Positions 1 through 10,284 of a stretch of DNA of 10,446 nt are shown in pieces. The first letter of the stretch is position 1, and each line of letters begins with the position of its first letter. Origin of the DNA: Atribacterota bacterium (lineage in GTDB: Bacteria; Atribacterota; Phoenicimicrobiia; Phoenicimicrobiales; Stramentimicrobiaceae); contig JAXGNR010000021.1 of assembly GCA_040767965.1 (NCBI GenBank), positions 1 to 10,446 on the forward strand, in the 5' to 3' direction. Below the pieces are notes generated by a model that saw only the letters and a list, made by a program, of their open reading frames with translations, was not told the DNA's origin and did not search any database. Position numbers and translations under genes: made by a program.

Positions 1-869
1 CTATCAACAAGAGCTGTGATTGGTATTTTTGGGGCATATTGCTTCCCTTCAGTAATATCAGCTGAAGTTGAAAACGCTAATGAAGCTCCATTAATGATAT
101 TTTTAAATCTTTTTTTCAAGTCTTCTAGATATATTAAATTTTTAGACCTAACAATGAAATCAGTTATTATCTTTTGGTTTATATCAGTGTTATTATTAAA
201 CAAATATGTGTAATGAATTCTTGCATCATCTACCATATGTTCTCTTAAAAACTCTATACCCAAAAAAGATATTAGCATTGTATCAATCTCTCTCTCGGTT
301 AAATTTTTGTTAAAATATTCTGAGTCTTTTTTACTACTGGAAAATGCTATTTTATAATGCATTGCTGCCAGTGTTTTCAAGTCAGTTGTTGTTTCTGTTC
401 CGCCATGCATAATCATTGCTATATCAATATCATTAAAACATCCATTTTCAATCATTTTTATTTTTCCACCACTTTGACCATAACCTTCTTCATCTGGGCA
501 CCCATAAACCACTATTTTAAATGGATATTTATCTGAAAGAGTGTTTATTATAGCAATTGCTGCTCCAACAGCACATGGACCCTGCATGTTATGTCCGCAG
601 GCATGTCCTATGCCAAACAAAGCATCGTATTCACATAATAATCCAATAGACGGTCCTCCTGGAAAACTTTCGTATTCTGCCCGAAAAGATGTTTTGTGGC
701 CACCTATTCCCAATTGCACTTTAAAGCCATTTTTTTCTAAATATTTAGATAAAACTTCTGATGACTGAAATTCTTGACAACCTACTTCTGAAAAATTAAA
801 TATTGTATCAGATAAATTTATTAATTCTTTTGATATCTTGTCTATATGTAAAAATATCTTTTCTTTCAT
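1..869 (-). CDS. M20 family metallo-amidohydrolase (M20D, Acy1L2/AbgB-like); partial, 3' end lies beyond the window edge
   Basis: Absent from the ORF track, so translated by hand. The frame is open from ATG 869 (SD AAGGAG at 878-883, 8 nt spacing) to position 1, giving 289 codons: MKEKIFLHIDKISKELINLSDTIFNFSEVGCQEFQSS...IGLLCEYDALFGIGHACGHNMQG...VVYGCPDEEG...GGKIKMIENGCFNDIDIAMIMHG...GIEFLREHM...RIHY. EYDAL, HACGHN, P(A/D)EE and MxH are hallmark M20D metal-binding and catalytic motifs. Confidence 0.9.
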   Translation of the reverse strand, partial: MKEKIFLHIDKISKELINLSDTIFNFSEVGCQEFQSSEVLSKYLEKNGFKVQLGIGGHKTSFRAEYESFPGGPSIGLLCEYDALFGIGHACGHNMQGPCAVGAAIAIINTLSDKYPFKIVVYGCPDEEGYGQSGGKIKMIENGCFNDIDIAMIMHGGTETTTDLKTLAAMHYKIAFSSSKKDSEYFNKNLTEREIDTMLISFLGIEFLREHMVDDARIHYTYLFNNNTDINQKIITDFIVRSKNLIYLEDLKKRFKNIINGASLAFSTSADITEGKQYAPKIPITALVD

Positions 870-921
870 TATCATTTCTCCTTAAATATTTTTAAAATAA
901 TTCTAGCCAATTAAAATTACA

Positions 922-1869
922 TTAAACTTTAAAACAGCTTACAAAATGGTTGTTAGAATATTCTAAAAGGCTTGGATCCTTTTCCCTACAAGCATCATCA
1001 GCCAAAAAACATCTTCCTGCAAACCTGCAGCCAGGTTTGGGATTAATTGGACTAGGAACATCTCCTTTTAGGATTATTCTTTTTCGATTAATATTTAATT
1101 TAGGGATAGGAACCGCTGATAACAATGCTTTTGTGTATGGATGTAATGGATTTTTAAATATTTCGTTTGAACTTGCTATTTCTACTATTTTACCTAAATA
1201 CATCACTGCAACCCTATTACTGATATGTTTAACAACACTTAAATCGTGTGAAATAAATAAATAAGTTAAATTCATCTCATTTTGCAAATCTTTAAGTAAA
1301 TTAATTACTTGTGCTTGTATTGAAACATCTAATGCAGATACTGGTTCATCTAAAACAATAAAGGAAGGATTTAGGGCTAAAGCCCTAGCTATTCCAACTC
1401 TTTGTCTCCGACCACCATCTAGCTCATGAGGATACGCATTTACCATTCTATTGGACAGTCCTACTTTTCCCATTAAGTCATAAATATGATTTGTCATATC
1501 TTTTTTTTCACGATAAACATTTTGAACTATAAAGGGCTCTGAAATACTTTCAAAAACACTTTTTCTGCCATCTAATGAAGAATAAGGATCTTGAAATACA
1601 ATCTGAATTTCTTTTCTTGCATTTTTTAAATCTTTTTTGCTTAATTCAAGAAGGTTTATGCCTTTAAAATATATTTCTCCGCTTGTGCTTTCAATCAATC
1701 TCAATATTAACCTTCCTATTGTTGATTTTCCGCATCCAGATTCGCCAACCAGTCCAAGAGTTTCCCCTTTATCTATGTAAAAACTCACATTGTCTACAGC
1801 ATGTAGCAAGCCTTTTTTTACATTAAAATATTTTTTTAAGTTTTTTATTTCTAATATTCCATTGTCCAA
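922..1869 (-). CDS. dppF: Oligopeptide/dipeptide ABC transporter ATP-binding subunit (DppF/OppF family)
   Basis: Walker A GESGCGKS, Q-loop IVFQDP, variant signature LDGGRRQR, Walker B IVLDEP, H-loop SHDL, and C-terminal HPYT...PGCRF..RC domain. Start is TTG 1875 or TTG 1869; 1869 is better spaced from GAGG at 1878-1881. Symbol is a family-level label. Confidence 0.93.
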   Translation of the reverse strand: MDNGILEIKNLKKYFNVKKGLLHAVDNVSFYIDKGETLGLVGESGCGKSTIGRLILRLIESTSGEIYFKGINLLELSKKDLKNARKEIQIVFQDPYSSLDGRKSVFESISEPFIVQNVYREKKDMTNHIYDLMGKVGLSNRMVNAYPHELDGGRRQRVGIARALALNPSFIVLDEPVSALDVSIQAQVINLLKDLQNEMNLTYLFISHDLSVVKHISNRVAVMYLGKIVEIASSNEIFKNPLHPYTKALLSAVPIPKLNINRKRIILKGDVPSPINPKPGCRFAGRCFLADDACREKDPSLLEYSNNHFVSCFKV

Positions 1870-1902
1870 TTTCAATACCTCATTATATTTATGTATTCTA
1901 AA

Positions 1903-2871
1903 TTATACATTCGGGCATTTAACAAAATGTCCTTTTTCTATTTCTACATTATCAGGCATTACAGTTTTACATTTTTCTGTTGCAATTGGGCATCTAGGGT
2001 AAAAACTACATCCTTTTGGCAAATTAATTGGATCAGGCATTAGTCCAAATATTGGTCTGAGTATATTTTCTTCACTTGTAATGTCTGGGATACATTCAAA
2101 AAGACCTTTAGTATAAGGGTGTTTAGGGTTTAAAAAAATATGATTTTTATTGCCATACTCCACTATCTCTCCAGCATAAATAATTGCTACAGAATTGCAA
2201 ACTTCAGCAACTACTCCTAGATCATGAGTAATCATAATTACCGATGTATTATATTTGGATATTAAATCTTTCATCATTTCCAATACTTGTGCCTGAATAG
2301 TAACATCTAAGGCAGTGGTAGGTTCATCTGCAATAAGAAGTTTGGGATTACATACTAAAGCCATCGCGATAACAACACGTTGTTTCATTCCTCCGCTAAG
2401 CTGATGAGGATAATCATTGGCTCTCTCTTTATCAATTCCCACCTGACCCAACATGTCACCTGCCATATTTAAGGCTCTTTTCCAATTATGACAATCATGG
2501 AGAGAAATCGCTTCTGCTATTTGATTTCCAATTGGAATAACAGGATTTAACGATGTCATAGGATCTTGAAAAATCATAGAAATTTGTTTTCCTCTGATTG
2601 CTCTCATTTCTTTTTCATTCTTCTTTAATAGGTCTAATCCTTCAAAGAATATCTTACCGTTTATTATTTTTGCTGGCGGGTTTGGTAATATCCTCATAAT
2701 TCCTTTTACTGTTGTTGTTTTTCCAGCACCGGTTTCACCAACAAGTCCCAATATCTGTCCCTGTTCCATAGCCAAATTGAGATTTCTTACTGCCTGCACT
2801 TTGCCTTCATGAGTTAAATAATGTATCGTTAAATCTTTTACTTCTAATAATTTGGCTTCATTTTTGCTCAT
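1903..2871 (-). CDS. dppD: Oligopeptide/dipeptide ABC transporter ATP-binding subunit (DppD/OppD family)
   Basis: Walker A GETGAGKT, MIFQDPMTSLNP, signature LSGGMKQR, Walker B LIADEPTTALDV, THDLGVV, and Cys-rich C-terminus. SD GGAGG at 2881-2885. Symbol is a family-level label. Confidence 0.95.
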   Translation of the reverse strand: MSKNEAKLLEVKDLTIHYLTHEGKVQAVRNLNLAMEQGQILGLVGETGAGKTTTVKGIMRILPNPPAKIINGKIFFEGLDLLKKNEKEMRAIRGKQISMIFQDPMTSLNPVIPIGNQIAEAISLHDCHNWKRALNMAGDMLGQVGIDKERANDYPHQLSGGMKQRVVIAMALVCNPKLLIADEPTTALDVTIQAQVLEMMKDLISKYNTSVIMITHDLGVVAEVCNSVAIIYAGEIVEYGNKNHIFLNPKHPYTKGLFECIPDITSEENILRPIFGLMPDPINLPKGCSFYPRCPIATEKCKTVMPDNVEIEKGHFVKCPNV

Positions 2872-2964
2872 ATTAGTCAGCCTCCAAACGCAACTGTCTT
2901 TTTAGAATAATATATTTTTATTTTTTGGATAATTTGGAAATAAATTTTATTAATAAATTTAAGT

Positions 2965-3873
2965 TTAATCTTTAAGTTTTGGGTCAAGCGCATCTCTCAA
3001 TCCATCACCAATTAAATTCATAGCATAGATAGCAAACATTATTGCAATTCCAGGAAATGTGCAAACATGGGGACTATGTCTTAAAAAATCTCTCCCTGTG
3101 GAAAGCATGGAACCCCATTCAGGAGTAGGAGGAACAATCCCTAATCCTAAAAAACTTAAGGAAGCACACGAAAGAATCGCAGTACCAACACTCATGCTTA
3201 TTTGAATGATCATAGGGGCCATACTGTTTGGGATTATATGTTGGGTTATAATATAAAAATCGCTTGCGCCTGTTGCTCTTGAAGCTTCTATAAATTCTTG
3301 CTCACGAACAGACAAAACAGCACCTCTCATGACTCTGCAATATCTTGGCATAGTTGAAATGCCAATTGCTACCATCATATTTTGTAAACCTGGGCCTAAT
3401 GCTGAAACAATTGCAATTGCTAACAATATTTGAGGTATGGCCATAAATATATCCATTATTCTCATAATTATATTATCTATTCTACCCCCAAAAAAGCCAC
3501 CAATTGAACCCAGGGAACTTCCTAATAAAAATGCAATGCCAACAGCAATCAATCCGACAGATATTGAAATCCTTGAACCATAAACAATTCTACTGAAAAC
3601 ATCACGTCCAAGTTCATCTGTCCCAAGTATGTGTTCCTTTGTAGGTGCTTTCAATCGATTTAATAAATTTTGCTCAAGAGGATCATGTGTCGCTATTATC
3701 GGAGAAAAAATAGCAAGGGAAATTAAGATAATTAACATTATCAAACCAACGACAGCGGATTTATTTCTACGAAATCTTCTCCAGATTTCAGCACTTTGAC
3801 TTTTTTTGGCATATTTTATTTCTGTCTCAATGCTAATATTCTTTGGCTGAATTTCTTTGTTTTTCCTATTCAT
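2965..3873 (-). CDS. dppC: Oligopeptide/dipeptide ABC transporter permease (DppC/OppC family)
   Basis: IWRRFRRNKSA N-terminal motif, HILGTDELGRDVFSRIVYGSRIS, EAA loop EFIEASRATGAS, LSFLGLG..PPTPEWG, and GDGLRDALDPK. Start is ATG 3873 (GGAG upstream) or GTG 3885, which overlaps the dppB stop. Confidence 0.95.
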   Translation of the reverse strand: MNRKNKEIQPKNISIETEIKYAKKSQSAEIWRRFRRNKSAVVGLIMLIILISLAIFSPIIATHDPLEQNLLNRLKAPTKEHILGTDELGRDVFSRIVYGSRISISVGLIAVGIAFLLGSSLGSIGGFFGGRIDNIIMRIMDIFMAIPQILLAIAIVSALGPGLQNMMVAIGISTMPRYCRVMRGAVLSVREQEFIEASRATGASDFYIITQHIIPNSMAPMIIQISMSVGTAILSCASLSFLGLGIVPPTPEWGSMLSTGRDFLRHSPHVCTFPGIAIMFAIYAMNLIGDGLRDALDPKLKD

Positions 3874-3884
3874 TTTTTTCTCCA

Positions 3885-4817
3885 CTACTTATATTGAGAT
3901 TTTAGACGAGGATCAGCAAAGGTATAAAGTATATCAACTATCAAATTTACGATGCTAAAAGCTAAGGCGATTATTAATACTCCTCCCTGGACTATAGGAT
4001 AATTACGTGCTTTTATGGCATCAACCATCATTTTACCCATTCCAGGGACTGCAAATACAGACTCAGTTAATACTGCCCCTCCCAGCATTACTCCAAATCT
4101 AATACCAATTACTGTTATTATTGGTATTAGAGCATTCTTTAGCGCATGATTTAAAATTATATTTTTCTCTTTTTGACCTTTTGCTCGAGCTGTTACAATA
4201 TAATCCTGTCTTATTACTTCTAGCATGCTAGACCTGGTCATTCTTGTGATTACCGCTGCAGTACTTGTCCCAATCGTAATTGTTGGTAAAATCATATGTT
4301 TCCAGCTAGAAAAACCAGTTGCTGGTAACCAGCCAAGATAAACCGAAAATAGCAGCATTAATAACAATCCTTGCCAAAAGTTTGGCATAGCAGTACCAAT
4401 CATTGCTAATATCATTGAAATATTATCAAAAATGGAGTATTGCTTAACAGCAGATATAATACCTAGTACAAGACCTATGATTACAGCTAAAGCTACCGAT
4501 AAACCAGCCAATTTTACAGTATTAGGGAAGGTTTGAGCTATCCTTGTAGTAACAGGTTGTCTTGTAGCATAACATATTCCCAGATCTCCTTTTGTTACGA
4601 AATTCCATAAAAACCTTCCAAATCGTACAAGAAAAGGATCATTAAGGCCCATCTCTTCTCTTAATGCATCAATTGCTTCTTGCGATGCTCCTTCTTCACT
4701 CAATAATATTTCAGCAGGGTCACCTGGAGTAATATACATTAAAGTAAAGACTATCAATGATACAAAAAACATCACAGGAATTAGCATAAATAATCGATAA
4801 AAAATATATTTTATCAT
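3885..4817 (-). CDS. dppB: Oligopeptide/dipeptide ABC transporter permease (DppB/OppB family)
   Basis: PGDPA, GLNDP, TRMTRSSMLEV, EAA loop DYIVTARAKG, HALKNALIP, ESVFAVPGMG, and DILY..DPR. ATG 4817 (MIKYIFYRL) matches the typical DppB N-terminus and has GGAAGG upstream, so it is preferred over the track start at 4841. Confidence 0.95.
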   Translation of the reverse strand: MIKYIFYRLFMLIPVMFFVSLIVFTLMYITPGDPAEILLSEEGASQEAIDALREEMGLNDPFLVRFGRFLWNFVTKGDLGICYATRQPVTTRIAQTFPNTVKLAGLSVALAVIIGLVLGIISAVKQYSIFDNISMILAMIGTAMPNFWQGLLLMLLFSVYLGWLPATGFSSWKHMILPTITIGTSTAAVITRMTRSSMLEVIRQDYIVTARAKGQKEKNIILNHALKNALIPIITVIGIRFGVMLGGAVLTESVFAVPGMGKMMVDAIKARNYPIVQGGVLIIALAFSIVNLIVDILYTFADPRLKSQYK

Positions 4818-4915
4818 ATAGTTTTCTACCTTCCCATACAATCTATTATTAAAAATATTTATTTAAAGATAAAATAAAACAAAAATATGGAAATCAATTT
4901 TATATTATTAATTAG

Positions 4916-5914
4916 TCATTTTCTGAGATTTACAATAGCCTTATCTTCGATTTTTTCTAAACCATTCTTAAAAAAACCCACTATCATATTAGCAGCAGAT
5001 ACACCCATTCTATCAAACGATTCTTTGGTTATACCAGCTATATGTGGAGTAGTTACAACATTGTTTAACTGCAAAAGCTTATTATGAATGAAGTTTGGGG
5101 GTTCCATTTCAAAAACATCAATTCCTGCTCCTGCTATTCTGTTCTCTTGAAGAGCATCAATCAATGCATTTTCATCAATAACTTCTCCTCTAGAAGTATT
5201 GATTATATAGGAATTCTTTTTCATCAATAAAAATTCATTTTTTCCAAGAAGATGAAATGTATCTTTATTTAAAGGGCAGTTAACACTAATAATATCAGAC
5301 TCTTTTAAGAGTAATTCAAGGTTATCTACCAATTTAACTGATTTTGGAATATCTTTTATTGATAGAAAAGGATCAAAAACCAATATATTCATTTGCAGAG
5401 GCTTCAATAAATCAACTATTTTAGAGCCAATTCTCCCAAAACCAATAATTCCAACATTTTTTTTATATAATTCTTCTCCTTGGTTAATGTCTCTATTCCA
5501 ATTTCTATTACATGTTAGCCCTTTATGATTTAATAATATTCGTTTAAATAGAACAAGCATTAAAGTTAAAACATGTTCTGCGACAGATTGCGAATTTGCA
5601 CCAACAGTGATTAATACTGGAATATTAAGGTTAGTTGCAGCATCAATATCTATATTATTATATCCGACTCCGTGCTTAACAATAATCTTCAGTTTATTAG
5701 AAGAATTGATTACTTCTCTATCAATAATCCCCTTTCGAACAATTAATCCATCTATTTGCTTTTGTTTAGAAATAAATGCAATTTCAGAAGAGGATGCATA
5801 ATCTTCTGTGTATATAATTTGAAAATTATTTTTAGTTAATATTTTCTTTGCTTCTTCACCTAACTTAGAACCGGTAATTAATATTGTTTTAGATTGAACG
5901 CTATTTTGTTTCAT
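4916..5914 (-). CDS. NAD-dependent D-isomer-specific 2-hydroxyacid dehydrogenase (phosphoglycerate dehydrogenase-like, no ACT domain)
   Basis: HGVGYNNID, NSQSVAEH, Rossmann GIIGFGRIG followed by FDPF (Asp suggests NAD preference), INTSRG (Arg), DVFEMEP (Glu), and TPHIAG (His). Start is ATG 5914 or TTG 5929. Confidence 0.92.
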   Translation of the reverse strand: MKQNSVQSKTILITGSKLGEEAKKILTKNNFQIIYTEDYASSSEIAFISKQKQIDGLIVRKGIIDREVINSSNKLKIIVKHGVGYNNIDIDAATNLNIPVLITVGANSQSVAEHVLTLMLVLFKRILLNHKGLTCNRNWNRDINQGEELYKKNVGIIGFGRIGSKIVDLLKPLQMNILVFDPFLSIKDIPKSVKLVDNLELLLKESDIISVNCPLNKDTFHLLGKNEFLLMKKNSYIINTSRGEVIDENALIDALQENRIAGAGIDVFEMEPPNFIHNKLLQLNNVVTTPHIAGITKESFDRMGVSAANMIVGFFKNGLEKIEDKAIVNLRK

Positions 5915-6042
5915 ATTAAGATCTTTCAAAAGCTAGTGTTTAGGAATTAATTAAATAATAATTAAATAATAATTAATAAAACTGATATTGTAATAAAATA
6001 TTTAAAAGGCATCTAAATAAAGAAATAATAAACATATTAAAG

Positions 6043-6099
6043 TAAAAACAAATGTCTATACTGGGAGTTTATACAGTCCAGCATAGACATTTGTTTTTA
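6043..6099 (-). terminator. Long stem-loop directly after the SBP stop codon; probable intrinsic terminator or mRNA-stabilising hairpin
   Basis: A perfect 17-bp inverted repeat (TAAAAACAAATGTCTAT at 6043-6059, ATAGACATTTGTTTTTA at 6083-6099) extends inward through CTGG/CCAG. On the minus-strand RNA the one mismatch is a G-U pair, giving a 22-bp stem, a 13-nt loop and a U-rich 3' arm. Confidence 0.75.
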
Positions 6100-6105
6100 T
6101 AAATA

Positions 6106-7631
6106 CTAATCAGCAAAGTATACAGTTGAATATTCAATTCTTTCATTTGGAATAGTATTAAAGCCTCTGACTTTTGAGTTTAAAGCTACACTGGAGTATT
6201 CGTAACACAAATATATTAACAAAGCTTCGTCATGAATTACTTTTTGTACCTCCAGATAAATCTTGTTTCTTTCTTCAAGATCCATTGTTATCTTTGCCCT
6301 TTCAAGCAAGTTATCAACATATGGATTAGAATAATTTACTCTACTTCCACCTGGCCCATGATTAGAAGAATGGAATAATTTCATTAATCCTTCACCAGTT
6401 TCACCAATATTGAAAGCGCTTCTAACTGGCATTACTTCTTGGTTCATTCTATTTGCATTCTCGGTTAAGGCTCCGCTTTCCATTGGATTCAGTGAAAGAG
6501 TTACACCAACTTCTGCCCACTGAGCTTGCAACATCTGCGCCATAAGGTTATTGGTCGCATTTGCAAGGTAAGTGAAAGAAGTTTTGTAATTATCTTCATA
6601 GCCGGCTTCTTTTAACAGCTCTCTCGCTTTTTCTGGATTATAATCATACAATGGTAGGTTTTCATGTCTTCCACCTAAACAGGGGGGACAATTGTTGTAG
6701 CTTTTTGTGCTCCCATTTTTGTATATAAAACTTCTCTTATAGTATCGATATCAGTGGCATAATTTAAAGCTTGTCTGACTTTTTTATCTGCTAAACTATT
6801 TTGTGTTGTATTAAAAGCTATATACCTAACATATATGCTAGGATAAAGAACAAGATTGATATTTTCATCAGCATCAAGTCTTTCATAGTCAATTGCAGGT
6901 AAGACCAAAGCTGCATCGACACCACCGCTTTCAATTTCTACAACTCTACTGCTTTGTTCGGTTATAATACGGAACACTACACTCTTTAATTTTGCATTTT
7001 CCCCCCAGAAGTCATCAAAACGTTCAATTGTAATATTGTCACCTGCTGTCCATGATTTAAATTTAAAAGGTCCGGTACCAATAGGATTAATATTGGCATC
7101 TCCTCCTGCTTCAATGGCTGCTTTTTCGCTAACAATACTTAAATGTGTTAGACATAATAAACTGGTGAATGGTGCGTACTCCTCTTTAGTCCTTATTATT
7201 ACCGTATAATCATCAGGTGTCTCAAACCCTTCCATGTCAATTTCAGCAGTATAAGCCCCACTTACAGGTTTTTCGTTTGCCCTCTTTAGGCTATATATAA
7301 CATCATTAGCCTTTAGCTCTTCACCATTATGAAACTTTACTCCTTTTCTTAAATTAAAACGATAAGTTAAGCTATCAATCTGTTCATAACTCTCAGCTAA
7401 TCCAGGAACAATATTCATATCAGTATCAAAATCAAGTAAAGTATCAAATATTTGAGCAACTATGGTACATGTAATAGAAATGTTTGTGGCAGTAGGGTCT
7501 AATGACTGTGGCTCGCGATCAATTGCTACTGTCATAACTTCTTTTGCAGCAAAACTTGTTGCAGATAACATTGCCACTAAGAAAAATACCATTAACAGTA
7601 AATTCAAGAGCGTTTTTAAATTTTTTTTCAT
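6106..7631 (-). pseudogene. ABC transporter substrate-binding protein, family 5 (DppA/OppA-like), interrupted by a 1-bp frameshift near 6678-6687; either a pseudogene or a sequencing error
   Basis: ORF 6675-7631 has a signal peptide, EPQSLDP, IFDTLL, PGLAES, LRKGVKFHNGE and PIGTGPFKF. ORF 6106-6651 has YDYNPEKARELLKEAG...ERNKIY. These are the N- and C-terminal parts of one SBP_bac_5 protein in different frames. Adding one base joins them as IVPP(G/C)LGGRHENLPLYDYNPEKA, about 508 aa. SD AAAGGA lies upstream of ATG 7631. Confidence 0.88.
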
Positions 7632-7649
7632 ATTTTATTTCCTTTCTTT

Positions 7650-7976
7650 TTATTCATCGACTTTTATTTTGATTTTCAATAATGGAGCATACTGTTGTGC
7701 TCCATAAACATCAGTATCTCCAACAGTCCCTGAAGATATTGTTCTGGCTATAGTAACTTTAATAGCATTGGCAGGTTCGTATTCTCCAAAATAAGTAATT
7801 TTTTCAATTGGAATATGGTACAGTTTAGCAAACAATTCTTTGGTAATAGATTTACTTCTCTTGACAAATTGATATGATTCTTGGTCTTTAAAAAGAAGGT
7901 CAAAAGTTATCTCAAATGGACCAGCATTTTTACTTCTAATAATTTTAGCTAACTTTGTTATTGGTATCTCCTTCAT
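7650..7976 (-). CDS. DUF4387 family protein (small partner of the AtuA-like protein)
   Basis: LAKIIRSKNAGPFEITFD and GDTDVYGAQQYAPL match my recollection of the DUF4387 consensus. SD GGAGG at 7986-7990; start is ATG 7976 or TTG 7979. It lies directly downstream of the DUF1446 gene. Confidence 0.85.
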   Translation of the reverse strand: MKEIPITKLAKIIRSKNAGPFEITFDLLFKDQESYQFVKRSKSITKELFAKLYHIPIEKITYFGEYEPANAIKVTIARTISSGTVGDTDVYGAQQYAPLLKIKIKVDE

Positions 7977-8025
7977 CAATAAATACCTCCTGATTAAGTA
8001 TTTAATATGTTTATACTACAAAATA

Positions 8026-9384
8026 CTAAAATTCCATCGTCTCAATTGAAAATATATCTTCTAAACTGTCTATTTCGACCAAATGATGTATGTTAAATTC
8101 ATAGACTTCTCCAGTTGGTATATCTGAAGGGGCAAAAGGGAAAGCAAGGTTTCCTGCAGTACCTATTCTATTTTTATAAGAATAGTGCAGTAGTGTTGAT
8201 CTTGCAAAAGCACAAATAGTATTTGCTAATTCTTGGTTTTTTGCAGTAACTTCTATTATCAAACATAATTCGTGAGAGGTAATTTTTTTTTGAGGTTCTA
8301 AATCTGCCATCACACCATTTTTGCCATATATATGAAATATTAATCGGTAATCAAAATCTGCGATACTGGAAAAATATGATGTTGTTGAATTTCGCACATG
8401 CTCTTCACACTCAGTGATTCTTCTGATCATTATAGGGTCTCTTACTCCAGCAATACTAATGGTTCTATAGGCAACTTTACGAGCTCCTTCGAGTTTTATT
8501 TTTAAATTGCTATTCCCAACAAATCTTGAGCCAGATACCGAGACTGATCTATTTGAATATTGTTCAAATTTACAATTCGAAAGATCAACGATTCCCTCAG
8601 GACCAATAATTTGTAAAGGATTTGATTTTTCATATAGAGAATGTGCCGCTACAGAACTAATTGTACATTTTCTACTTTTATTAGTTGGTTCAACTATAAA
8701 ATCATTTTTTCTAATAACTCCGAACATACAGTCAGAAGTTGTTCCCGGGGTAGATGACAAAGCTCCACATTCAAGAATTTTACCCATATGCAAAGCAAGG
8801 CCAGGATCGCAACCTTTTTTAATTGGCAAGGCAGCAAACATTGCAGGGTCATTGGAGCGCCCAGCTATAATTAGATTGGCATCCATTTTTAATGCCTCTA
8901 TGAACGGTTGCACACCCATTACACCCACAATTCTTGTAGCATCTTCAATATCTTTTATTGATATATCGGGCACTGGTCCTAATGGTGCTATTTTTTCTTC
9001 AATTAACTTTTTTTTAAGATATTCTTTTTCAACTTCAGAATGAATTACTGCAGTTTTAAAATGTAAATTGTTTTCTTTTATAATTTCTTTGACTATTTCC
9101 ATAGTCCAATCAAGATGTTTGTCCGCTCCAGAGCCACCTGCGGAACCAATTATAACAGGAATCTTATTTTTAAATCCCGCTAACAACATTAATGAAAGAT
9201 CTTTTTTTGTAGCTTCTTTGCTGACAATGCCCACCCCAGCTCCCAGTTTGTGAGGCCCTGCATCTGTAGATCCTGCATCAGCAGCTATAACATGTGGCTC
9301 TTTTTTTAATCCTAACTGAAAAGACTTTTCTGGAAATCCATAGCCCACCATTCCGACTGGGGATAAAACTCCAATTCCGTTCAT
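8026..9384 (-). CDS. Acyclic terpene utilisation AtuA-family protein (DUF1446), function unknown
   Basis: SPVGMVGYGF, DAGSTDAGP..LG, GSAGGSG, IIAGRSNDPA, ALHMGKILECG, SVAAHSLYEK and TAGNLAFPFAP. It is 452 aa, has SD GAAAGGA, and is adjacent to DUF4387. Confidence 0.85.
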   Translation of the reverse strand: MNGIGVLSPVGMVGYGFPEKSFQLGLKKEPHVIAADAGSTDAGPHKLGAGVGIVSKEATKKDLSLMLLAGFKNKIPVIIGSAGGSGADKHLDWTMEIVKEIIKENNLHFKTAVIHSEVEKEYLKKKLIEEKIAPLGPVPDISIKDIEDATRIVGVMGVQPFIEALKMDANLIIAGRSNDPAMFAALPIKKGCDPGLALHMGKILECGALSSTPGTTSDCMFGVIRKNDFIVEPTNKSRKCTISSVAAHSLYEKSNPLQIIGPEGIVDLSNCKFEQYSNRSVSVSGSRFVGNSNLKIKLEGARKVAYRTISIAGVRDPIMIRRITECEEHVRNSTTSYFSSIADFDYRLIFHIYGKNGVMADLEPQKKITSHELCLIIEVTAKNQELANTICAFARSTLLHYSYKNRIGTAGNLAFPFAPSDIPTGEVYEFNIHHLVEIDSLEDIFSIETMEF

Positions 9385-9415
9385 ATTGATCCTTTCGGTT
9401 TTTAATTCAATTTAT

Positions 9416-9444
9416 ATTATAATAACAATATAATACATTGACTA
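9416..9444 (-). promoter_or_regulatory. Possible sigma70-type promoter for the atuA-like operon
   Basis: Minus strand reads TAGTCA (9444-9439), N17, TATAAT (9421-9416), about 30 nt upstream of ATG 9384. The -35 box matches 4/6 and the region is very AT-rich, so support is weak. Confidence 0.35.
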
Positions 9445-9492
9445 ATTCATGACTATTTTTAATTGTTTACTGCATTAAGTATAAAAATATTA

Positions 9493-10200
9493 TTAAATAA
9501 AATTAATAATTGCTTTTCTTATATTATTTAGATGAAATTGCATGGCTTCAACAGCTCTTTTGCTATTATGTTCTTTAATATATTTGCATATTTCCAAATG
9601 TTCCAAATATTGTTCCTGTTTTCGCCCAGGAATTTTCCAGGTTTTTTCACGAATATTTTCTAATAAATCAAATTCCATTTTTACAAGATTAACAAAAATA
9701 AAATTATGTGATGCTCTGGCAATAGATAAATGGAAATCTCTGTCTAAATTATTTTCTTCTAAAACAATATTTATACTATTCTCAAATTTACCTTTTTTAC
9801 TCTTGATTAAAACTTTTTGGATTTCATCAATATCGTCTTTGGAAGCTCTTTTTACAGCAAATTCAACTATTTTCAACTCAAACACTTCTCTTGCTTCCAA
9901 TAGTTCTAAAATAGATGTTTTCTCCAGCCTTAGAATTATATTGTCAGTATCTATAAATGACTCTTTATCTATCTCCCTAATAAATCTCCCACCACCTGGC
10001 TTGCTTTTTATCACTCCTCTTGCCTCTAAAACACGCAATCCTTCCCTTAAAGAACTCCTACTAATTCCCATAAATTCAACAAGGTCTCTTTCTGGAGGTA
10101 TTTTATCTCCTGGTTTTAAAGTATTATTTTTAATTAATTCGTAAATCTGATTAATTGCATATTCATATAGCTTGTAATGGATTATTTTATTTAATAGCAT
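9493..10200 (-). CDS. GntR family, FadR subfamily transcriptional regulator (wHTH + FCD domain)
   Basis: HTH region LKPGDKIPPERDLVEFMGISRSSLREGLRVLEARGVI..KPGGG, and FCD motifs ELLEAREVFE, DRDFHLSIARASHN, EHLEI and AMQFHL. ATG 10200 gives a typical 235-aa length. The TTG 10284 extension is probably non-coding. Confidence 0.93.
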   Translation of the reverse strand: MLLNKIIHYKLYEYAINQIYELIKNNTLKPGDKIPPERDLVEFMGISRSSLREGLRVLEARGVIKSKPGGGRFIREIDKESFIDTDNIILRLEKTSILELLEAREVFELKIVEFAVKRASKDDIDEIQKVLIKSKKGKFENSINIVLEENNLDRDFHLSIARASHNFIFVNLVKMEFDLLENIREKTWKIPGRKQEQYLEHLEICKYIKEHNSKRAVEAMQFHLNNIRKAIINFI

Positions 10201-10225
10201 TATATATTTTCTATATTTTATATTT

Positions 10226-10284
10226 ATTGGTTTGCCTAGCAGACCAATTTTAAGTATATTAGCAAATATTAATTTTAAAATCAA
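10226..10284 (-). promoter_or_regulatory. Putative promoter of the regulator gene with a palindromic operator at about +1
   Basis: Minus strand reads TTGATT (10284-10279), N17, TAATAT (10261-10256, preceded by TGn). It is followed 7 nt later by the inverted repeat ATTGGTTTGC-cta-GCAGACCAAT (10226-10248, 9/10 symmetric) with TGGT...ACCA cores. Confidence 0.5.

Follow-up and report, generated by a model that had tools for sequence, protein, structure and literature searches.

Citramalate lyase CmlAB is the closest described relative of the two proteins at the centre of this study. Passages of a preprint (bioRxiv 10.64898/2026.01.16.699985) state that cmlAB of Raoultella planticola, a gift of the I. 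Berg laboratory, splits citramalate directly to pyruvate and acetate, and a figure legend in PMC4682846 notes that mal, which encodes methylaspartase, has a DUF1446 gene downstream. Lyases of the CmlAB type need no coenzyme A to break the C–C bond that adjoins a free carboxylate; citramalate is the sole substrate reported so far, and the genes are still annotated as unknown or terpene-utilisation proteins. We analysed a stretch of 10,446 nucleotides (the window) that forms the entire contig JAXGNR010000021.1 (C21 in our numbering) of an uncultured Atribacterota bacterium from sludge (GCA_040767965.1), whose genome comprises 2.33 Mb in 30 contigs and is 98% complete. The window carries a CmlAB-like gene pair between a GntR-type regulator gene and a peptide-type ATP-binding cassette (ABC) importer followed by an M20 amidohydrolase gene, a cluster that probably represents a still undescribed breakdown route.

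A CmlAB-type lyase pair beside a family-5 importer

The large subunit matched 9erq_A (citramalate lyase subunit A, cmlA) over residues 6–448 with an E-value of 2e-138, and the small subunit matched 9erq_B (cmlB) over residues 7–104 with an E-value of 7.8e-30. An AlphaFold2 model of the large subunit (pLDDT 88.7, built on 20 relatives) superimposed on 9evf_A with Z 48.0 and a root-mean-square deviation of 2.2 Å across 447 of 452 residues, the next match reaching Z 9.5; the 9EVF entry, released on 2025-10-08, bears the title "Citramalate lyase - ADP - pyruvate complex". Against 9erq_A the window protein scored 465 bits, its counterpart in L056 (a Firmicutes-type locus described below) 466 bits and a canonical methylaspartate-cluster member 523 bits. 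As in CmlAB pairs, the AtuA-family and DUF4387 genes adjoin, here 46 nt apart, and cmlA is present in a single copy in the genome. The original prediction had regarded DUF1446 and DUF4387 as uncharacterised, a description that no longer fits, both proteins being closely related to CmlAB, the citramalate lyase of known structure (9ERQ/9EVF; described in the cited passages of bioRxiv 10.64898/2026.01.16.699985). With the same two-gene layout, full-length similarity and the same large-subunit fold, the window pair very likely belongs to the CmlAB lyase family; it departs from the solved enzyme in carrying a tyrosine in the small subunit at a position held by histidine in CmlB. AtuA of the Pseudomonas acyclic terpene utilisation pathway is a more distant relation: the corresponding Pfam family PF07287 was matched at 70.5 bits, versus 465 bits to CmlA, and Pfam found no domains of atu-type neighbours (biotin carboxylase, acyl-CoA dehydrogenase, hydratase) among the window proteins.

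Methylaspartate operons for glutamate fermentation (glmS-glmL-glmE-mal-cmlA-cmlB-x-fumarase) contain the same lyase family, and relatives 47–51% identical to the window protein lie inside such glmS-mutL-glmE-mal ... fumarase clusters (L026, L029 and an annotated Prevotella nigrescens record). In the window, by contrast, importer and amidohydrolase genes replace those for the mutase, the ammonia-lyase and the mesaconase, and neither the locus nor the genome provides a methylaspartate-pathway context: within this genome neither glutamate mutase E (Met_asp_mut_E) nor class I fumarase/mesaconase (Fumerase) gave a match, and for methylaspartase the best MAAL_C match reached 25.9 bits versus a cut-off of 27. 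The methylaspartate route was thus not found in the organism's own genome, so the acid must come from elsewhere.

All long open reading frames (ORFs) that matched a family are on the minus strand, and ten co-directional genes fill the 10.4-kb contig (Table 1), separated in transcription order by 108, 46, 18, 176, 74, −1, 93, 27 and 46 nt. The original prediction had listed eleven co-directional genes with short gaps; the common direction was borne out, and the count drops to ten since two of the ORFs are halves of a single gene for a family-5 solute-binding protein (SBP). Its family assignments for the cluster proteins were upheld by Pfam and NCBIfam. The Dpp/Opp-type importer set is complete, with SBP_bac_5, two BPD_transp_1 permeases and two ATPases that carry the oligo_HPY C-terminal region. 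Identical contigs from other metagenomes bridge the cmlB/cmlA, cmlA/GntR, SBP/dehydrogenase and dehydrogenase/permease junctions, so the gene order is real and no assembly chimera.

We give an even chance to the reading that these genes form a mosaic catabolic unit, in which an amide-linked compound is imported and hydrolysed and its acid moiety is then cleaved by the CmlAB-type lyase. The importer would take up a small amide-linked compound, and the M20 enzyme would hydrolyse the amide and free a hydroxy-dicarboxylic acid (citramalate or a close analogue). The lyase, predicted to bind a nucleotide and to act without coenzyme A, would then convert this 2-hydroxy-2-alkyl-dicarboxylic acid to acetate and a 2-oxo acid, the latter being pyruvate in the solved enzyme, and the dehydrogenase would interconvert 2-oxo and 2-hydroxy acid for redox balance. 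An amide-linked acid, as the original prediction proposed, would be a plausible class of imported substrate. We infer the substrate, the coupling of the steps and the part played by the dehydrogenase; whether the lyase is functionally coupled to the importer and M20 enzyme is about an even call.

Origin and recurrence of the importer block

The original prediction depended on the gene combination occurring in further genomes, and importer and M20 genes do recur behind DUF1446/DUF4387 in an unrelated Firmicutes-type lineage, represented in our metagenome scan by L055 and L056 (the same organism in two metagenomes). Here the order is a divergent LysR gene, a DUF1932-type dehydrogenase, an RraA-like aldolase/decarboxylase, cmlA, cmlB, SBP, permeases, ATPases, M20 and an AbrB-family membrane protein. 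Identities to the window proteins amount to 47% for cmlA, 60% for cmlB, 81/75% for the SBP, 81/78% for the permeases, 74/70% for the ATPases and 59% for M20. In a quick tree the L056 cmlA fell into a distant clade with Acetobacteraceae and Acidobacteriota sequences; two lyase lineages thus precede the same importer lineage. In this locus and its L055/L056 counterpart, a CmlAB-type lyase is linked with both an importer and an enzyme for amide hydrolysis, and the binding protein, hydrolase, lyase and regulator together offer a handle for seeking a new natural substrate in the anaerobic digesters and landfills that the organism inhabits. As a side observation, the DUF1932/NAD_binding_2 dehydrogenase and the RraA-like protein before cmlAB (L056:6536-8289) include one, the RraA-like protein, that scored above the NF004850 cut-off and partially matched CHA aldolase/oxaloacetate decarboxylase.

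Closer to home, the two halves of the cluster have different relatives. A scan of species-representative genomes returned 31 loci with a CmlA relative (ORF picking at the high-GC loci L022, L028, L030 and L031 yielded spurious frames; of these four loci, Pfam covered five L028 proteins). Orthologues of the SBP, the dehydrogenase or the M20 enzyme were found at none of the 31, where the strongest matches were ATPases at 40–46%. Among 85 other Atribacterota genomes, 25 hold a cmlA 71–76% identical to that of the window, and one more a 44% match; in the same 85 the best SBP reached 36–37%, the best dehydrogenase 44% and the best permease 51–53%, and M20 was not found at an E-value of 1e-45. With importer, dehydrogenase and M20 orthologues missing from both sets, the cluster is no conserved unit among relatives. 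The window cmlA is sister to other Atribacterota sequences in the quick tree (SH-aLRT 98), and in 12 of the 31 related loci the gene immediately upstream of cmlA encodes a GntR protein 50–57% identical. Around 7650–7590, at the cmlB stop and the SBP start, the DNA of the window turns from likeness to the Atribacterota relative to likeness to L056. The nearest SBP anywhere, 81% identical, is labelled as belonging to a Firmicutes metagenome-assembled genome, the organism from which the L055 and L056 contigs come; further SBP relatives are 63–66% identical. We consider it probable that the cluster is a mosaic of a native GntR–cmlA–cmlB trio and a foreign importer/M20 block: the genes after the native cmlAB would have been replaced by a horizontally acquired Firmicutes-type block, with a dehydrogenase inserted.

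The SBP itself carries a trace consistent with such a transfer. A lipobox cysteine together with a long linker occurs in every one of its 12 nearest homologues; the window SBP has a short signal peptide and no cysteine (7540–7631), and our reading of this sequence is that its N-terminus was refitted for the periplasm after transfer. The locus would then show clearly how gene transfer between single- and double-membrane bacteria can rebuild a catabolic operon, a lipoprotein signal having given way to a periplasmic one.

Other loci show what can stand behind the native trio. Eight Atribacterota loci (L005, L007, L009, L010, L012, L014, L016 and L025; type A) share a constant ORF-length pattern behind cmlB, found in part at L020. 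In L005 (9162–21354), the sole type A locus scanned for families, cmlB is followed by an HD protein, the large and small proteins of the homoaconitase family, Iso_dh, PrpD, two saccharopine-dehydrogenase-like proteins and a class-III aminotransferase; the Iso_dh protein is nearest to homoisocitrate dehydrogenases. By analogy, this set reads like enzymes of the alpha-aminoadipate / 2-oxoacid-elongation type, with the lyase replacing the synthase, and it may be a reverse route that ends in a 2-oxo acid and acetate. Type A clusters have the same regulator–lyase trio as the window (cmlA 73–75%, GntR 50–57% identical), whereas all genes downstream of cmlB differ, and the organism's own genome holds no counterparts of the type A HD, PrpD and saccharopine-dehydrogenase proteins. 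In a second arrangement (type B; L015:7374-16155 and L018:3993-15948), cmlAB is preceded by genes for PrpD, a DUF1932 dehydrogenase, Ldh_2 and subunits of class I fumarase; the ABC importer that follows it is a different one, of the TOBE type and with its permease fused. DUF1932 and RraA-like genes are near cmlAB in both L018 and L015.

Type B also bears on another explanation, namely that the SBP binds free citramalate or a similar dicarboxylate, CmlAB turns it into pyruvate and acetate, and M20 is incidental. Type B relatives have an ABC importer directly after cmlAB, and the Acetobacteraceae locus L028 combines cmlAB with nothing but an FCD regulator and an MFS transporter, so uptake plus cleavage is a common layout. 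What makes such free acid uptake improbable for the window is that M20 accompanies this importer lineage in five of the six loci that reach far enough (L055, L056, L059, L060 and L062; not L057), and that the ligands named for the best solved SBP matches are peptides, glutathione, opines or metal chelates, with no plain dicarboxylate among them.

The small subunit is strongly divergent. CmlB proteins of Atribacterota and Thermotogota are mutually 79–94% identical, and the window CmlB is only 62–65% identical to them; to the L056 CmlB it is 60% identical, compared with 51–55% for the others. Seven residues are common to the window and L056 CmlB alone, with 0–1 such residues shared with each of 25 others. 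One of the seven falls in the motif YGAQQ[H/Y], with tyrosine in the window and L056 and histidine in the solved CmlB and 25 of 26 other locus-derived sequences. Across 150 wider DUF4387 representatives we counted histidine in 87, tyrosine in 26 and another residue in 10, the motif not being found in 27; tyrosine is thus a recurrent state and no defect by itself. The large subunit showed no excess of parallel changes with L056 (2 shared versus a background of 0–4), and its identity to the Thermotogota outgroup was 69%, versus 74–80% for other clade members. When recombination within cmlB was tested by sliding DNA identity and by alignment, cmlB was nearer the Atribacterota relative throughout, save for one short stretch nearer L056. 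The pattern would fit convergence or patchy gene conversion, two processes that the DNA comparison does not separate.

Weighing the proposed route

If the lyase and the importer block were chance neighbours, which we hold possible though on the unlikely side, the locus would comprise a regulated organic-acid lyase next to an acquired importer for dipeptides or N-acyl-amino acids with its own hydrolase, plus a stray dehydrogenase, and the amino acids would feed fermentation. Importer and M20 genes do occur alone, behind LysR, in the Clostridia-type loci L059, L060 and L062 (SBP 50–53%, permeases 63–70%, M20 38–40% identical); these modules differ from the window in lacking a lyase, in having LysR and not GntR, and in placing M20 upstream and not downstream. 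Such an arrangement can serve on its own for the uptake of peptides or amides. The GntR–cmlAB trio for its part has quite different neighbours in its relatives, a hairpin stands behind the SBP gene, and M20 and SBP resemble peptide-handling proteins. Chance association is harder to reconcile with the same importer lineage lying directly behind a distant-lineage cmlAB in L055/L056, with a cmlB–SBP gap of 18 nt that holds no terminator-like site, and with a small subunit that changed in parallel with that of L056; a contig from an RNA library also spans the junction, a weak point given that DNA in the library is possible. Were the halves indeed unrelated, the finding would shrink to an ordinary annotation update.

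Several observations, the lone importer–M20 modules among them, weigh against the mosaic catabolic unit. The recurrence is limited to one other lineage, the dehydrogenase has no part in it, and the cmlB–SBP spacers of the window and L056, both 18 nt long, are unlike in sequence. The nearest lyase relatives adjoin homoaconitase-like or fumarase-like genes, so even the native lyase substrate is uncertain. The nearest solved relatives of M20 and SBP handle ordinary peptides, glutathione or dipeptides, and we know of no natural amide of citramalate. With a hairpin behind the SBP gene, the genes downstream may be transcribed separately. Lastly, the Tyr-for-His change in the small subunit could signify altered or lost activity.

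The same change admits a bolder extension of the mosaic catabolic unit, which we regard as doubtful: the Tyr-type CmlAB of the window and L055/L056 would have a new substrate specificity and would perform C–C cleavage in an undescribed amide-conjugate pathway (the imported conjugate being that of a 2-hydroxy-2-alkyl-dicarboxylic acid, such as an N-citramalyl-, N-citryl- or N-malyl-amino acid), assembled twice through the union of different lyase lineages with the same importer and M20 enzyme, with the small subunit adapted in parallel.

For the hydrolase step, the M20 fragment (291 residues, its gene truncated by the contig end) scored 107.7 on TIGR01891 versus a cut-off of 153.75, and the full-length L056 protein (531 residues, 59% identical to the window) scored 186.7. 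The fragment contains His-x-Cys-Gly-His and Asp-Glu-Glu-Gly, which we take to be the M20D metal-binding and catalytic motifs. Searching the other 29 contigs with tblastn for the remainder of the gene returned only distant paralogues at 25–31%. With the full-length L056 orthologue as query, the best solved relative of this lineage was HmrA (3RAM, E 1.2e-49), and the Xaa-Arg/beta-alanyl-lysine dipeptidase PM20D2 (7YH4) matched with an E-value of 4.1e-34; the likeness to both is at family level only, and the L056 orthologue has some 130 residues more. Among solved structures, the SBP matched the unnamed 5U4O and then the heme/glutathione-binding HbpA, GsiB (YliB) and DppA.

The dehydrogenase has both a catalytic domain (PF00389, 2-Hacid_dh, 91 bits) and an NAD-binding domain (PF02826, 2-Hacid_dh_C, 189 bits). 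It remained below the equivalog cut-offs for PGDH (267 versus 454) and glyoxylate reductase (206.5 versus 455), and its solved matches were short phosphoglycerate dehydrogenases, followed by McyI and glyoxylate reductases. Its best relative anywhere is 56% identical and its best in the phylum 44%. The gene sits between those for the SBP and the first permease, a position at which L055 and L056 have no such gene; we take it to be an orphan insert within the acquired block. At L057, a different 2-Hacid_dh protein (36%) is encoded upstream of the SBP.

A final alternative, that the cluster is decaying and non-functional, appeals to the broken binding protein and the truncated M20 gene. In this assembly a single base is indeed missing beside place 6679, which splits the SBP into two frames, and M20 is incomplete. 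We aligned Logan contigs to the window from X1, X2 and X3, DNA metagenomes of three studies (soil, wastewater and landfill), one of which may be the source sample. The extra base by 6679 is present in X1, whose sole contig over this place (987 nt) is identical in all else, in X2, whose sole covering contig likewise shows no other difference, and in one of the contigs of X3, at a depth of 2.7 of 5.2, so the SBP gene is probably intact. Read by eye, the extra letter joins the SBP frame to the second ORF without a stop and restores a Pro-Pro-Gly-Leu-x-Gly-Arg stretch found in the consensus of 13 relatives; we ascribe the break to an error in assembly or to an allele present in a minority, and do not regard the gene as a fixed pseudogene. 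M20, moreover, ends at the contig end and not by mutation, and all other frames are open, which leaves decay very improbable. Joints in metagenome contigs whose sides had 20–32 letters at 90% likeness were rejected, being taken as other organisms or repeats.

Sequence features, transcription signals and related islands

Table 1. Genes and candidate signals of the window, in order of transcription
Feature	Positions	Strand	Evidence and remarks
GntR+FCD regulator	10284..9493	-	Pfam GntR 56.9 bits, FCD 62.1 bits; likely ATG 10203 (236 aa)
Regulator–cmlA intergenic region	9385..9492	-	Candidate promoter TAGTCA-17-TATAAT; TAGTCA word repeated
CmlA-like large subunit (AtuA/DUF1446), 452 aa	9384..8026	-	9erq_A E 2e-138; 9evf_A Z 48.0
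CmlB-like small subunit (DUF4387), 109 aa	7979..7650	-	Pfam DUF4387 134.9 bits; 9erq_B E 7.8e-30
Family-5 SBP	7631..6106	-	Pfam SBP_bac_5 on both halves, 7631..6675 and 6651..6106
22-bp hairpin	6043..6099	-	7 nt past SBP stop codon; U-rich stretch after
D-isomer 2-hydroxyacid dehydrogenase, short SerA-like	5929..4916	-	Pfam; likely ATG 5914 (332 aa)
DppB/NikB-type permease	4841..3885	-	Pfam BPD_transp_1 and BPD_transp_1_N; 81% identical to L056
DppC-type permease	3885..2965	-	Pfam BPD_transp_1 and OppC_N; 78% identical to L056
OppD/DppD-type ATPase	2871..1903	-	Pfam ABC_tran and oligo_HPY; 74% identical to L056
OppF/DppF-type ATPase	1875..922	-	Pfam ABC_tran and oligo_HPY; 70% identical to L056
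M20D-type amidohydrolase, first 291 codons	875..3	-	TIGR01891 107.7 bits; gene cut by contig end

The original prediction had placed the cluster under FadR control. The regulator is a member of the FCD subfamily of GntR proteins but not FadR (NF003444 40.7 bits versus a cut-off of 189), and it reached no NCBIfam equivalog. We infer that it co-regulates the genes of the cluster. The TAGTCA-17-TATAAT site between regulator and cmlA lies at 9444..9416; promoter-like sites number 60 in the window versus 52.6 ± 7.2 in shuffled sequences, and being no commoner than in shuffles, they leave this site as only a candidate.

A simple scan of the minus-strand gaps, including the 18-nt cmlB–SBP gap, found no terminator-like site, and a search of the whole window against Rfam gave no match at an E-value of 0.1. 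The near-perfect 22-bp hairpin after the SBP stop codon (dG −29.8 kcal/mol, z −8) is a candidate partial terminator or mRNA stabiliser, and probably the usual device for making more binding protein than membrane parts. L056 has a GC-rich hairpin at the same place, after its SBP gene (L056:11609-11640). A contig from the metatranscriptome X5 is identical to 7574–7767 and crosses the cmlB/SBP junction, which gives a hint of expression, with library DNA as a possible source; window parts that X5 does not cover carry no information. One X3 contig of high depth (39.7 of 43) has one letter fewer at 10197, in the AT-rich region where the regulator starts, and may come from another abundant organism.

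Lyase pairs of this type also occur on plasmids. From 51 records with a CmlA relative in a plasmid collection, we inspected three (H1, H10 and H16), and these had no family-5 importer or M20 alongside. CmlAB-type pairs are found on conjugative plasmids of Alphaproteobacteria (L070, Neorhizobium; L071, Ochrobactrum), one pair next to genes for fumarate hydratase, a P450 and agmatinase, the other next to an ABC importer, a CoA transferase and a thiolase. Many clusters for acid catabolism appear to include the lyase as a module that can move.

Elsewhere in the organism's own genome, a stretch of less than 40 kb on contig C7 (53884–55772, 74906–75580 and 90013–91404) encodes two RraA-like proteins as well as a distant paralogue of M20. 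One of the RraA-like genes adjoins an Ldh_2 gene, and the region may be another organic-acid island.

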